A stretch of 3,382 nucleotides of DNA from a virus (taxonomy: Duplodnaviria; Heunggongvirae; Uroviricota; Caudoviricetes): the IMG/VR virus record IMGVR_UViG_2617270938_000006; one strand, given 5' to 3'. The translations under genes were made by a program, and so were the position numbers. Under the pieces are notes generated by a model. The model was given only the letters and a program-made list of their open reading frames with translations, did no database searches and was not told the origin of the DNA. Below are positions 1 to 3,382 of this stretch, piece by piece (position 1 is the first letter of the stretch; each line of letters starts with the position of its first letter).

Positions 1-198
1 ATCGCTGTTGTTCTTTTTCAGACGGGCCATGCACCCGCAAATGATCATCGCGTCATCGTCACAACATTGTGGGCGAGATTTTACTTTTGAAGGAATTAAT
101 CCCTTAAAACCGGCGGCAATGGACGACCAGGTCACATCTTCATGATTATTAGCCGCCCACGCTCCCCAACGCTCAAGAACCATCTGAATATCACGCAT
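1..198 (-). CDS. quuD: Q-type late-gene antiterminator, N-terminal 66 codons only (gene continues beyond the left window edge)
   Basis: Minus-strand ATG at 198-196 preceded by GGAG about 7 nt upstream; open frame with no stop to position 1. Translation [66 protein letters not shown] matches my recollection of the DLP12 QuuD N-terminus and contains a Cys cluster (CC...C-x-C). Sits downstream of rusA/ylcG as in lambdoid nin-Q regions. Not in the supplied ORF track because it is truncated. Confidence 0.7.
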
Positions 199-283: not shown

Positions 284-421
284 TCATACTCCTGCTCCTG
301 TCAGGGTTTTGGCGTAATTCTTCAGTATTCGGTAATCGGTCAAAACAGAACCGGGGAAACGATATAAGCGCAGACGCCCCCAGCGGTGGCGAAGAAGTTC
401 TGCCATATAAAACTCAAACAT
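284..421 (-). CDS. Small phage protein, YlcG-like by position (45 aa from the ATG overlapping the rusA stop; 40 aa if it starts at the internal ATG 406-404)
   Basis: Minus-strand frame [45 protein letters not shown], stop TGA at 286-284. The first ATG (421-419) shares one base with the rusA TGA stop (ATGA coupling). Located between rusA and Q, where ylcG lies in DLP12. Sequence identity to YlcG not verified. Confidence 0.45.
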   Translation of the reverse strand: MFEFYMAELLRHRWGRLRLYRFPGSVLTDYRILKNYAKTLTGAGV

Positions 422-783
422 CATTCATTCCCCATTTCGGTGATGGTCAGTTCCAGCCTCCCACCTTTGGTAACAGGCATCTTCACAACGCGGTAATCAA
501 CGACCTGAGCATCATCCAGCCAGAAACCTGCTTTGGTGAGTGCGTCAAAAGCGGCTTTTTGCAGATTATCCAGGTCACGGCGACGGCGATCCGGCATGTG
601 GCACTCAATACGGATTTTCACTGGCATAGCCAGGCCGATATCCAGCATTGCGTTTTTAATGATTCGGGTGACGTTATCGCGGTATGCCTGCCCTTCTGCG
701 CTGATGTGTGTGCGCCCGCGATTATGGCGGTAGTAGCGGTTATTGCTCGGCGGCCAGGGTAGTGTGATGTGGTAAGTATTCAC
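421..783 (-). CDS. rusA: Crossover junction endodeoxyribonuclease RusA (Holliday junction resolvase), 120 aa
   Basis: ORF-track protein [38 protein letters not shown]... is near-identical to E. coli RusA as I remember it. Acidic residues D70, D72 and D91 (RRDLDNL...LDDAQ) are present. Start codon is GTG (783-781) preceded by AAGAGGGGG about 10 nt upstream, with an in-frame TAA two codons upstream. Confidence 0.95.
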
Positions 784-893
784 GCCTTAATTACCCCCTC
801 TTTCAGCCAGATATTTCCCGGCCTTTCTGTTATCAGAAATCCACTGAAAGCACAGCGGCTGGCTGAGAAGATAAATAATAAACGGGAGGCGGT
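784..893. promoter_or_regulatory. Divergent intergenic joint between rusA (-) and the plus-strand operon; putative promoter/operator region
   Basis: 110-bp non-coding gap between divergently oriented first genes. Contains both ribosome-binding sites (GGGAGG 884-889 for the 894 ORF; rusA SD on the other strand), an AT-rich stretch GATAAATAATAAA (870-882) and an 8-bp inverted repeat TCAGCCAG (803-810) / CTGGCTGA (859-866). No -35/-10 pair can be called reliably by eye. Confidence 0.3.
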
Positions 894-1085
894 ATGCACA
901 AAGCATCTCCTGTTGAGTTAAGAACGAGTATTGAGATGGCACATAGCCTTGCTCAAATTGGAGTCAGGTTTGTGCCAATACCAGTAGAAACAGACGAAGA
1001 ATTTCATACGTTAGCCACATCCCTTTCACAAAAGCTGGAAATGATGGTGGCGAAAGCAGAAGCAGATGAGAGAGACCAGGTATGA
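894..1085 (+). CDS. Hypothetical small acidic phage protein (63 aa), first gene of the plus-strand operon
   Basis: ATG at 894 with strong SD GGGAGG 4 nt upstream; 63 codons; net acidic (about 11 D/E against 6 K/R). Its TGA stop (1083-1085) overlaps the ATG (1082-1084) of the next small ORF. Size and position recall the orf61/orf63-type small genes of lambda's pL operon, unverified. Confidence 0.6.
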   Translation: MHKASPVELRTSIEMAHSLAQIGVRFVPIPVETDEEFHTLATSLSQKLEMMVAKAEADERDQV

Positions 1086-1165
1086 CAACCACTGAATGCA
1101 TTTTTCTGGCAGCGGGCTTCATATTCTGTGTGCTTATGCTTGCCGACATGGGGCTTGTTCAATGA
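1082..1165 (+). CDS. Candidate 27-aa hydrophobic micropeptide MTTTECIFLAAGFIFCVLMLADMGLVQ (single predicted transmembrane helix)
   Basis: Absent from the ORF track (too short). ATG 1082-1084 overlaps the upstream stop as ATGA; its own TGA stop (1163-1165) overlaps the ATG (1162-1164) of the downstream ORF, again as ATGA. It bridges exactly the 77-nt gap between the two flanking ORFs. About 20 consecutive hydrophobic residues. Confidence 0.4.
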   Translation: MTTTECIFLAAGFIFCVLMLADMGLVQ

Positions 1166-1377
1166 CACCTCAGCAAGAAAACGCCCTTCGCAGCATTGCC
1201 CGTCAGGCTAATTCTGAAATCAAAAAAGCCAGACAGCATTTTCCGGATAAAAACGTCGATGACATTTGCCGTAGCGTACTAAAGAAGCACCGCGAAACGG
1301 TAACGCTGATGGGATTCACACCGACTCATTTAAGCCTGGCGATCGGCATGTTGAACGGCGTCTTTAAGGAACGGTGA
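1162..1377 (+). CDS. Hypothetical small basic phage protein (71 aa)
   Basis: Frame of track ORF 1096..1377, but I favour the internal ATG at 1162 (MTPQQENALRSIARQANSEIKKARQHFPDKNVDD...) because it is stop/start-coupled to the micropeptide and the 1096 ATG has no SD. Net basic (about 12 K/R against 7 D/E). Function unknown. Confidence 0.5.
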   Translation: MTPQQENALRSIARQANSEIKKARQHFPDKNVDDICRSVLKKHRETVTLMGFTPTHLSLAIGMLNGVFKER

Positions 1378-1398
1378 ACATGAAAAGCAAAATCATCA

Positions 1399-1426
1399 GG
1401 GAGCTACAGGCTCCTTTTTTATTATT
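1399..1426 (+). terminator. Putative Rho-independent terminator
   Basis: GGAGC (1400-1404), 5-nt loop TACAG, GCTCC (1410-1414), followed directly by TTTTTTATTATT (1415-1426); 22 nt past the stop at 1377. The stem is only 5 bp (extendable to 7 with G-U/A-U at the cost of the U-tract), so strength is uncertain. Confidence 0.35.
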
Positions 1427-1475
1427 CGCATTTACCCTCAAGCGTATTAACCAACAATTCAGGGATTAATGAAAG

Positions 1476-1694
1476 ATGGCAGACATCATTGATTCAGCAT
1501 CAGAAATCGAAGAATTACAGCGCAATACAGCAATAAAAATGCGTCGTCTGAACTACCAGACTGTATCCGCAACTCATTGTTGTGAGTGTGGCGATCCGAT
1601 AGATGAGCGAAGACGCCTAGCTGTTCAGGGTTGTCGGACTTGTGCGAGTTGCCAGGAGGAGATCGAACTTAAGAACAAACAATGGGGACTGTGA
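1476..1694 (+). CDS. TraR/DksA-family C4 zinc-finger protein (72 aa), likely RNA-polymerase secondary-channel binding regulator
   Basis: Exact C-x2-C-x17-C-x2-C spacing (Cys35, Cys38, Cys56, Cys59: HCCECGDP...GCRTCASCQ), the DksA/TraR zinc-finger signature. N-terminal D3-x-x-D6-x-A8 (MADIIDSA) matches the DxxDxA tip motif of this family. AGGGA about 10 nt upstream of the ATG. Confidence 0.85.
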   Translation: MADIIDSASEIEELQRNTAIKMRRLNYQTVSATHCCECGDPIDERRRLAVQGCRTCASCQEEIELKNKQWGL

Positions 1695-1741
1695 TGGCCT
1701 CAAAGCAGCAAATTTCAACATCGTCCAACTGAGGTGTAAAA

Positions 1742-2020
1742 ATGTTCAGAATCATTTTTCCTAACACCTGGTACGTCGACCACCACGGCACTCCCTGCAA
1801 AATCCTGCGTTCTACCCACAACAAAGTTCACTACATCCGAAAAGGCAGAACATGTATCGCCAGCATGTTCCGCTTTAATCATGACTTTGAACCTGTGAAT
1901 AAAGCTGATGCAGATCGGATAGCAGAAGAGATCGAAACGGCAGAACACATTAAGAAGTTACGTGACATGCGTTCAAAAAGCAGAGGTAACCATGGAATCA
2001 TACAGCCTCACACTCGATGA
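1742..2020 (+). CDS. Hypothetical phage protein (92 aa) immediately upstream of, and overlapping, xis
   Basis: ATG at 1742 with SD GAGGTG 5 nt upstream. Overlaps the xis start by 29 nt in a different frame. The core WYVDHHGTPCKILRSTHNKVHYIRKGRTCIASMFRFNHDF loosely resembles small DUF4222-type prophage proteins as I recall them, unverified. Confidence 0.55.
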   Translation: MFRIIFPNTWYVDHHGTPCKILRSTHNKVHYIRKGRTCIASMFRFNHDFEPVNKADADRIAEEIETAEHIKKLRDMRSKSRGNHGIIQPHTR

Positions 2021-2363
2021 GGCCTGTCAGTTTCTTAAGATATCCAGACCAACCGCCACCAACTGGATACGAACAGGCCGCCTACAGGCAACACGTAAAG
2101 ATCCAACCAAGCCAAAATCTCCTTACCTCACAACACGGCAAGCCTGCATTGCGGCGCTTCAGTCTCCGCTGCATACTGTCCAGGTGAGCGCGGGTGATGG
2201 CATAACAGAGGAAAGAAAATGTCACTCTTCCGCAGAAATGAAATATGGTATGCCTCGTATTCGCTCCCGGGCGGGAAACGAATTAAGGAATCTCTTGGCA
2301 CAAAGGACAAGCGGCAAGCTCAGGAGTTGCACGACAAGCGAAAAGCAGAACTCTGGCGAGTAG
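1992..2363 (+). CDS. xis: Excisionase (Xis), AlpA/Xis-family helix-turn-helix DNA-binding protein; 123 aa if the frame is read to its stop
   Basis: ATG at 1992 with SD AGAGGT 4 nt upstream (the track's 1962 start is a GTG without SD). N-terminal [37 protein letters not shown] is a typical excisionase HTH/wing and matches my memory of P22/DLP12-type Xis. Lies directly upstream of int. The frame stays open to 2363, 145 nt into int in another frame, so the 3' boundary is less certain than the 5' end. Confidence 0.75.
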
Positions 2364-3382
2364 AAAAGCTAGGGGATTTACCTGATGTCACTTTTGAAGA
2401 GCCCTGCCTAAGATGGCTTGAGGAAAAAGCTGATAAAAAATCTCTCGATTCAGATAAAAGCCGGATTGAGTTCTGGCTTGAACATTTTGAGGGTATAAGG
2501 CTTAAAGATATCTCGGAGGCAAAGATTTACTCTGCTGTAAGCAGAATGCATAACAGAAAGACGAAAGAAATATGGAAACAGAAAGTTCAGGCCGCCATCA
2601 GGAAAGGTAAAGAACTGCCTGTTTATGAACCAAAGCCAGTATCAACTCAGACAAAGGCAAAGCATCTTGCCATGATAAAGGCCATTCTCCGTGCTGCAGA
2701 ACGCGACTGGAAGTGGCTGGAAAAAGCGCCTGTCATCAAGATACCAGCGGTCAGAAACAAGCGAGTCAGATGGCTGGAAAAGGAGGAAGCAAAACGCCTT
2801 ATTGATGAGTGCCCCGAACCACTGAAATCTGTCGTCAAGTTTGCGCTGGCAACTGGTCTGAGAAAGTCGAACATCATAAATCTGGAATGGCAACAAATCG
2901 ACATGCAGCGACGAGTTGCCTGGGTGAATCCAGAAGAGAGCAAATCAAACCGCGCCATTGGTGTGGCGCTGAACGATACCGCCTGTAAAGTGTTGCGTGA
3001 TCAAATAGGCAAGCATCACAAATGGGTGTTTGTACATACCAAGGCGGCTAAGCGAGCAGATGGAACATCAACGCCTGCGGTCAGGAAGATGCGCATCGAC
3101 AGCAAGACATCATGGCTATCAGCTTGTCGTCGTGCAGGAATTGAAGATTTCCGTTTCCATGACCTCAGACACACCTGGGCAAGCTGGCTGATTCAGTCAG
3201 GCGTCCCATTATCAGTGCTTCAGGAAATGGGCGGATGGGAGTCCATAGAAATGGTTCGTAGGTATGCTCACCTTGCGCCTAATCATTTGACAGAGCATGC
3301 GAGGAAAATAGACGACATTTTTGGTGATAATGTCCCAAATATGTCCCACTCTGGAATTATGGAGGATATAAAGAAGGCGTAA
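2219..3382 (+). CDS. int: Phage integrase, tyrosine site-specific recombinase (P22/DLP12 IntD-type), 387 aa, complete
   Basis: ATG at 2219 with SD GAGG about 7 nt upstream; TAA at 3380-3382. N-terminus [33 protein letters not shown] and C-terminus ...[29 protein letters not shown] match my recollection of P22 Int / DLP12 IntD. Catalytic signature visible: R215 (TGLRKS), H314-x-x-R317 (FHDLRHTW), Y349 (VRRYAHL). Confidence 0.95.

Follow-up and report, generated by a model that had tools for sequence, protein, structure and literature searches.

A probable deletion scar at a recurrent TA breakpoint in a DLP12-type lambdoid prophage of Escherichia coli

Where two sets of phage genes turn their backs on each other across 110 bp of a lambdoid prophage, a question arises about the short stretch between them; namely, whether it is a control region for both arms or the scar left when the middle of the prophage was lost. 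The stretch lies at positions 784-893 of the 3,382 nucleotides analysed here, referred to below as the window. A first-pass annotation had proposed both a recombination scar and a regulatory hub. The window consists of a minus-strand set (Q, ylcG and rusA) and a plus-strand set that runs from DUF1382 to an integrase, with the following features.

1-198, minus strand: 5' part of a Q-family antiterminator gene (quuD-like), cut by the window edge (Pfam Phage_antitermQ 1-65/118, E = 9e-33)
284-424, minus strand: ylcG, a 46-aa open reading frame (YlcG family annotated at the equivalent place in loci L001, L003 and L004)
421-783, minus strand: rusA, Holliday-junction resolvase, intact, GTG start (Pfam RusA 1-123/124, E = 1.6e-22)
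780-813, minus strand: ybcO remnant, the last 10 codons and a TGA stop that overlaps the rusA GTG (base-for-base alignment with L001)
803-866: 8-bp inverted repeat, TCAGCCAG / CTGGCTGA, split between the ybcO and DUF1317 remnants
812-813: shared TA, the crossover point, named hot site S1 (BLAST segments 1-813 and 812-3382 overlap by 2 nt)
812-921, plus strand: DUF1317-family gene, 5'-truncated, the 3' 60% (Pfam DUF1317 positions 26-60/60, E = 1.2e-17)
894-1085, plus strand: DUF1382 gene (Pfam DUF1382 1-60/60, E = 8e-31)
Between the DUF1382 and TraR/DksA genes, plus strand: small unnamed gene
1398-1416, plus strand: terminator-like hairpin and T run (8 pairs, loop of 3, tail TTTTATTATT), stronger than a second hairpin at 858-841
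1476-1694, plus strand: TraR/DksA zinc-finger gene of the left arm (Pfam zf-dskA_traR)
1742-2020, plus strand: DUF4222 gene
2219-3382, plus strand: intD-type tyrosine integrase, 387 aa (Pfam Phage_integrase, E = 7e-47)

The Q-family gene carries a quuD annotation in matching genomes, and the intD, rusA and quuD annotations adjoining tRNA-Arg (argU) and fimZ identify the locus as that of the DLP12 cryptic prophage; in L001 and L004, intD is annotated, the argU tRNA-Arg gene follows directly and fimZ is nearby. Parts of the window match 4,754 of 5,426 complete E. coli genomes, and the exact RusA protein is listed in 4,402 blocks of the index of the collection. The entire window is found in one piece, at 99.97% identity, in one E. 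coli assembly (GCA_050191895.1, L137), where fimZ lies on one side and the Q/lipocalin region on the other; in L137 and L001 alike the locus is bounded by fimZ/tRNA-Arg and by the Q/lysis genes. Two smaller reading frames of the left arm were also recorded. An excisionase-like helix-turn-helix (HTH) frame at 1962-2363 (plus strand) stays open for ~145 nt beyond the integrase start at 2219; here PGAP annotates related genomes with no more than a 66-nt HTH pseudogene fragment, and the gene at this place in phage Turner is 56 aa long. A 27-aa hydrophobic open reading frame (MTTTECIFLAAGFIFCVLMLADMGLVQ, 1082-1165, plus strand), which begins 4 nt before the DUF1382 stop and ends 4 nt inside the next gene, could encode a small membrane peptide.

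The scar can be placed to the nucleotide. Loci with an intact ybcO-rusA pair match the window from 1 to 813, and identity stops after ...CCAGATA; the intact phages Turner, PhiR34_1, 2G7b and ev243 match it at 99-99.8% identity, from base 812 to 3382 only. With a slash marking the switch, the parental sequences read ...CCAGATA/ACCTG in ybcO and ...GCTGGGTA/TTTCCC in DUF1317, and the window reads ...CCAGATA/TTTCCC, that is, ...CCAGATA/TTTCCCGG. Because the parents and the window share only TA at the switch, the crossover lies in the TA at 812-813. Alignment with the ybcO-rusA junction, which the first-pass annotation had suggested as a way to find a breakpoint, therefore locates one at 812-813, with ybcO-rusA homology through 813 and left-arm homology from 812. 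The alternative it named, an unrearranged region that is no more than the conserved 3' end of an upstream nin gene, applies to 784-813 but not to 814-893.

The joint leaves both of its genes incomplete. The minus strand at 812-783 encodes the C-terminal 10 residues of YbcO. On the plus strand, bases 814-918 translate to positions 26-60 of the 60-position DUF1317 family; the match starts at Turner position 3805, 73 nt into a DUF1317 gene of 183 nt (3732-3914) that lies in that phage between exo and DUF1382 (3887-4078). PGAP calls the equivalent DUF1317 remnant in L003 a pseudogene. The overlap between the DUF1382 start and the DUF1317 3' end is native, since Turner has an equivalent overlap, and the order DUF1317-DUF1382-hyp-TraR-DUF4222-xis-int is common to the window and all four intact phages. 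A fortuitous GTG at 769, antisense to rusA, is in frame with the DUF1317 remnant and opens a 50-aa chimeric reading frame (769-921, plus strand) with a weak AGGG 10 nt upstream; gene callers could pick it up, and it is probably meaningless.

In intact contigs the two joined points are 8.8-11.6 kb apart and in direct orientation. Turner carries gam, RecT, a CI-like repressor gene and a divergent repressor gene adjoining it upstream of exo-DUF1317, and a second intact relative (L129) carries O, P and nin genes upstream of ybcO-rusA. From these two relatives, the lost segment comprises exo, bet/RecT, gam, the CI-like and divergent repressor genes, O, P and the nin genes as far as ybcO; judging by lambda, N, pL and pR would have been part of it as well. 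Intact DLP12-like phages retain exo, RecT, gam, the CI-like repressor gene and a full DUF1317, whereas the window has none of these.

With flanks collinear with those of intact relatives, the middle absent, truncated genes at the joint and a location at a prophage attachment locus, 784-893 is very probably the scar of an internal deletion (~9-11 kb) in a DLP12-type lambdoid prophage at argU of E. coli, without a native control role. The deletion would have rejoined the 3' tail of ybcO and the interior of DUF1317 at the TA common to both parents, with loss of the whole intervening segment. In the window, the ybcO tail, from the nin region of the rightward operon, is on the minus strand, and DUF1317, which closely follows exo in the leftward operon, is on the plus strand. 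Two other origins were considered and rejected. Derivation of the 'intact' arrangement by insertion into the joint is ruled out by the truncated reading frames on both sides, and a boundary between mosaic modules does not fit, as homology among intact phages breaks at 76, 278 and ~1078 nt into the nin region and nowhere at S1.

The DLP12 prophage of strain K-12 (intD...ybcN-ninE-ybcO-rusA-ylcG-quuD) is like the window in its integrase, its argU/fimZ locus, its rusA-ylcG-Q block and the 30 nt upstream of rusA. The window differs from it in lacking ybcN, ninE and all of ybcO except the last 10 codons, and in having rusA back-to-back with left-arm genes; in K-12, DLP12 has retained ybcO, and other genes have been inserted between its arms.

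We then asked how often the joint occurs. At the argU locus, none of the 5,426 complete genomes has the window joint at high identity. The same ybcO'/'DUF1317 joint was found at 93.5% identity in strains PK8566 (L003, 6095-6120) and EC20-4B-2 (H52); that of PK8566 is in a different prophage, which adjoins ybhC and has a different integrase. The shared joint is thus either older than apparent, moved by flanking homologous recombination, or formed twice. A 32-mer across the joint had no match in a collection with one genome per species, and the sole match there to a looser joint pattern, in a Clostridiaceae metagenome-assembled genome, was set aside as chance. Other strains have at least six further deletion forms at the argU locus: ybcN'/DUF1317 (LR-64-1), ybcO'/exo (FG92-1), ninE'/'traR (2017-03-3CC), ninE'/ybcN' (STEC383), quuD/IS1/DUF1317 (one strain) and ybcO'/'hyp (14EC033). 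This diversity indicates that the central region has been lost from this locus many times.

The ybcO nucleotide is itself reused. We scanned public collections for the 20 bases that end in ...CCAGATA followed by any base except the native A, and found that S1 (...CAGCCAGA-TA) is joined to at least 8 different partners at exactly one nucleotide in E. coli prophages. In 14EC033, the identical ybcO nucleotide is joined to a partner equivalent to window position 1279. Among the other partners, three are distinct left-arm sites (one within an ea22-like gene), and one, judged by eye from the sequence, apparently falls in an HTH gene of the rightward early operon. A further partner, at about codon 20 of O (by eye against lambda O), recurs in strains H5 and H6, and another, in DUF1382, recurs in strain A10 at icd. 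Three control positions no more than 30 nt away, scanned like for like, gave no joints; two were empty and the third yielded only 2 single-base variants. Several rusA haplotypes carry S1 joints in some members and the intact arrangement in others, so that more than one inherited event must be involved. The window joint arose by TA-centred breakage and rejoining at this recurrent hot site.

Some prophages with an S1 joint show further changes. A 373-bp deletion fuses rusA' to 'Q in two of the loci (L146, 1203-1206; L153 of strain A10, 2278-2604); its microhomology is AAGC/GGGAAGC, and it is an ordinary joint that is not TA-centred. Through its S1 joint, the prophage of strains H5/H6 (L152, 2604-2730) no longer has P, the nin genes or the part of O from about codon 20 onward. 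It keeps N and cII, together with a CI-like repressor gene of the LexA family and a cro-like HTH gene; it is replication-dead with its immunity genes retained.

S1 is one of several such sites. S2, in ninE (...CACGAATA/), has three partners (L126, L128 and L151); S4, at the DUF1317 start (GGGTA/GGCGCG), has nine left partners (L001, L063, L108, L128 and L154-L158); and S9, in exo, has five (L027, L074, L127, L135 and L160). S3 (in ybcN), S3' and X1 are each paired with both S4 and S9, and S3 is the left partner in one joint and the right partner in another. An all-against-all comparison of ~150 related loci, with IS insertions set aside, gave ~37 distinct clean deletion joints, of which ~25 are TA-centred and ~12 are not. 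All events are simple deletions in direct orientation with no bases added or lost, and neither inversions nor reciprocal duplication joints occur among the related loci compared.

The TA-centred joints share a sequence signature. At S1 and S2 joints, the partner parental sequence also ends in TA (11 of 11), so that the two parents have an identical crossover core, as in site-specific recombination. TA makes up 14 of 17 joints with exactly 2 nt of microhomology, a count in which some joints are scored twice. Reading each of 32 distinct sites toward the TA on its own strand, we found C at -4 before the TA in 38 of 64 flanks, compared with a background of 0.23 at all TA sites in those loci (P = 3e-10); the position is counted with scission just 5' of the TA, a scissile position chosen after seeing the data. 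G is enriched at -3, -2 and -1, giving a flank motif of C-G-G-G/TA. Every tabulated TA-centred joint has at least one partner with CNNN-TA on the retained flank, and the sites that lack CNNN-TA are all partners of hot sites. S1, S2, S3, S4 and S9 could be preferred sites at which a TA-specific breakage-rejoining process with this motif repeatedly deletes the immunity and replication module, although we regard this as somewhat doubtful.

What might break and rejoin DNA in this way? We tentatively consider, as a possibility short of a probable one, a sequence-preferring cleavage-rejoining enzyme that cuts with a 2-nt stagger around TA and prefers C-G-G-G/TA, using an S1-like site as donor and almost any TA as partner; candidate activities would be topoisomerase-like, serine-recombinase-like or TA-targeting transposase-like. 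Such an enzyme would fit the TA common to both parents in every hot-site joint, the 2-nt identical core (as for cutters with a 2-nt stagger), the recombination of sites in various pairings, the cleanness of all events and the CNNN-TA on a retained flank of all tabulated TA joints. It sits less easily with the lack of reciprocal products and with the single orientation of the events, as a palindromic TA core should also allow inversions, and half-site similarity among partners is weak, a mild C-G-G-G flank preference in a small set of 32 sites. The scissile position was, moreover, picked post hoc.

Known TA-directed systems resemble these joints in part. The Tc1/mariner/IS630 group has targets such as the Tc1 consensus CAYATATRTG, which are similar in the central TA, the C at -4 and the G at +4; unlike in transposition, there is no transposon at the joints and the deleted segments have no common ends. 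C at -4 is also the position that type IA topoisomerases have been reported to read, and for E. coli topoisomerase I a cut at a TA that follows a C by 4 nt has been reported (PMC9352719), which parallels the C four bases 5' of the break and the TA at the break in our joints. The published topoisomerase I motif, TCNTT/A, however, is AT-rich and cut inside the TA (PMC9352719), whereas our flanks are rich in G at -3 to -1, with the C 4 nt before the T; the C at -4 thus fits this enzyme and the sequence context does not. DNA gyrase, for which a 4-bp stagger around G-TA-C is conceivable, was rejected because the flanks do not match its cleavage determinants. The nicking site published for the Gabija protein GajA, TNNNC/GGGNNA (PMC8136825), misfits S4 and cannot account for the TA joints.

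Ordinary short-homology illegitimate recombination (replication slippage or alternative end joining) would require no sequence-specific enzyme, and the reuse of ybcO would then reflect nested secondary deletions or sampling. We consider this unlikely as the explanation of the hot sites. The microhomology is indeed present and just 2 nt long, other joints in this phage group use longer microhomologies (for example, TACCGG and GGTA), and about a third of the clean joints, the ~12 noted above, are not TA-centred. Against it, the process should have no sequence preference, and such a preference is what we found: microhomology-mediated deletion predicts neither the TA monopoly in 2-nt joints and hot-site partners nor the C and G enrichment of the flanks, and its generic version is therefore disfavoured for the reuse of S1. 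The reuse of single nucleotides with 8-9 partners at S1 and S4, when control positions have none, and the spread of S1 joints over several rusA haplotypes that have intact members also speak against it.

It is very unlikely that an IS element formerly at the ybcO site generated adjacent deletions of varied length and was then lost. A constant endpoint joined to varying ones is what IS-mediated adjacent deletion classically leaves behind, one strain has quuD/IS1/DUF1317 at this locus, and IS2 and IS10 have been reported to insert upstream of rusA (PMC1636454). No IS or IS remnant, however, is present at the S1, S2, S3, S4 or S9 joints, where phage sequence passes seamlessly into phage sequence; the element would have to be lost precisely after the adjacent deletion, without a direct repeat to act on, and several unrelated fixed sites would each require a separate lost IS.

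There remains the proposal that the joint is a regulatory hub, which must supply initiation signals for both arms if these are expressed at all. Its premise is sound, in that the window has no N gene and no sigma-70 early promoter pair of the pL/pR type. The hub itself finds no support: both halves of 784-893 are gene interiors or 3' ends, transcribed in intact phages from promoters that are now deleted. A scan for sigma-70 consensus promoters, which covers consensus-type sites as distinct from weak, non-consensus or alternative-sigma promoters and is thus no proof of transcriptional silence, found none in 784-893 on either strand and 1 in the whole window, compared with 4.1 expected. Searched permissively against Rfam, the window matched no known RNA over its whole length.

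The sequence features of the stretch have simpler origins. The 8-bp inverted repeat is present as the first-pass annotation had placed it (803-810 and 859-866), perfectly complementary with 48 nt between the arms. A perfect repeat of at least 8 bp arises in 8% of dinucleotide-preserving shuffles of the 110 bp (P = 0.08) and occurs in 3 of 164 real 110-bp stretches of the window sequence; there is a second inverted repeat, of 7 bp, at 800-806/844-850, and folding is unremarkable on either strand compared with shuffled controls (z = -1.5 and -1.65). The arms flank the crossover and derive from different parents; the deletion itself created the repeat, and none of the 7 other S1 joints, with their different partners, contains it. 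We conclude that it is a chance by-product of bringing two unrelated sequences together. The A/T block reported at 870-882 is all A/T only over 871-882 (ATAAATAATAAA), base 870 being G, and corresponds to the DUF1317 codons AAG ATA AAT AAT AAA (KINNK). The plus-strand Shine-Dalgarno (SD) sequence is there (GGGAGG, 884-889, 4 nt ahead of the ATG at 894) and, with that ATG of DUF1382, sits within the DUF1317 3' end as in intact phages. The SD of rusA (GAGGGGG, 800-794, minus strand, upstream of the GTG) is likewise confirmed. Its setting was said to be a different upstream sequence that might alter expression; the first 30 nt, which take in the SD and the GTGA where stop and start overlap, are those of the native ybcO tail in L001, and the sequence differs only beyond 813, where no recognisable promoter follows.

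A working bidirectional regulatory region, with the repeat as operator, the A/T block as promoter element, rusA read leftward and DUF1382-to-int rightward, is highly improbable: the genes do diverge here with an SD on each, AATAAT (874-879) matches 5 of 6 bases of a -10 hexamer and the joint is kept in at least 2 prophage contexts, but AATAAT has no usable -35 and would set transcription to start within the SD, the two halves lie kilobases apart in intact phages rather than forming a conserved unit, the single chance-level repeat is all the operator symmetry there is, the block and SD are conserved DUF1317/DUF1382 coding sequence, terminator-like hairpins occur on both sides (858-841, minus strand, between the A/T block and rusA; 1398-1416, plus strand) and the 7 other joints at the identical ybcO nucleotide do without this partner sequence.

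The stronger hairpin, at 1398-1416, is placed between the unnamed gene and the TraR/DksA gene, and could stop unantiterminated plus-strand transcripts before int. The sole sigma-70 consensus site of the window lies beside it on the opposite strand (1450-1421, minus strand). With the early promoters deleted and no consensus promoter created, we infer that transcription of either arm is most likely absent or owed to read-through, which may come from the lipocalin gene left of Q or from argU right of int. In this the arms would be like rusA of K-12, which is reported to be quiescent unless IS2 or IS10 inserts upstream (PMC1636454).

The identification of a deletion scar speaks against a regulatory hub, and rusA is predicted to be no less silent in this prophage than it is in K-12. 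The window itself is ordinary: a cryptic prophage that lacks its control region, with rusA and int-proximal genes back-to-back and apparently promoterless. Spontaneous nin and b-region deletion mutants of lambda are familiar, as is the decay of prophages through loss of their immunity and replication modules, and the window is like these in its large internal deletion of lethal or regulatory early functions and its stably inherited remnant. The joint is in this sense a fresh instance of a well-known kind, the cryptic-prophage deletion. It differs from the lambda deletion mutants in that the endpoint is reused at nucleotide precision and is tied to TA and a CNNN motif. We found no description of a TA-specific deletion process in prophages in the literature searched, and the left-edge breakpoint of the joint, being recurrent, specific for TA and flanked by a motif, alone deserves further study. 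More broadly, breakage here is nonrandom: many independent deletions in lambdoid prophages of E. coli begin at one nucleotide, nearly all of them joined at TA, with a shared flank motif. If an enzyme is responsible, prophage inactivation would be partly directed, and the structures of cryptic prophages would be predictable from sequence. A true TA-specific activity would mean sequence-directed 'grounding' of prophages instead of random decay.
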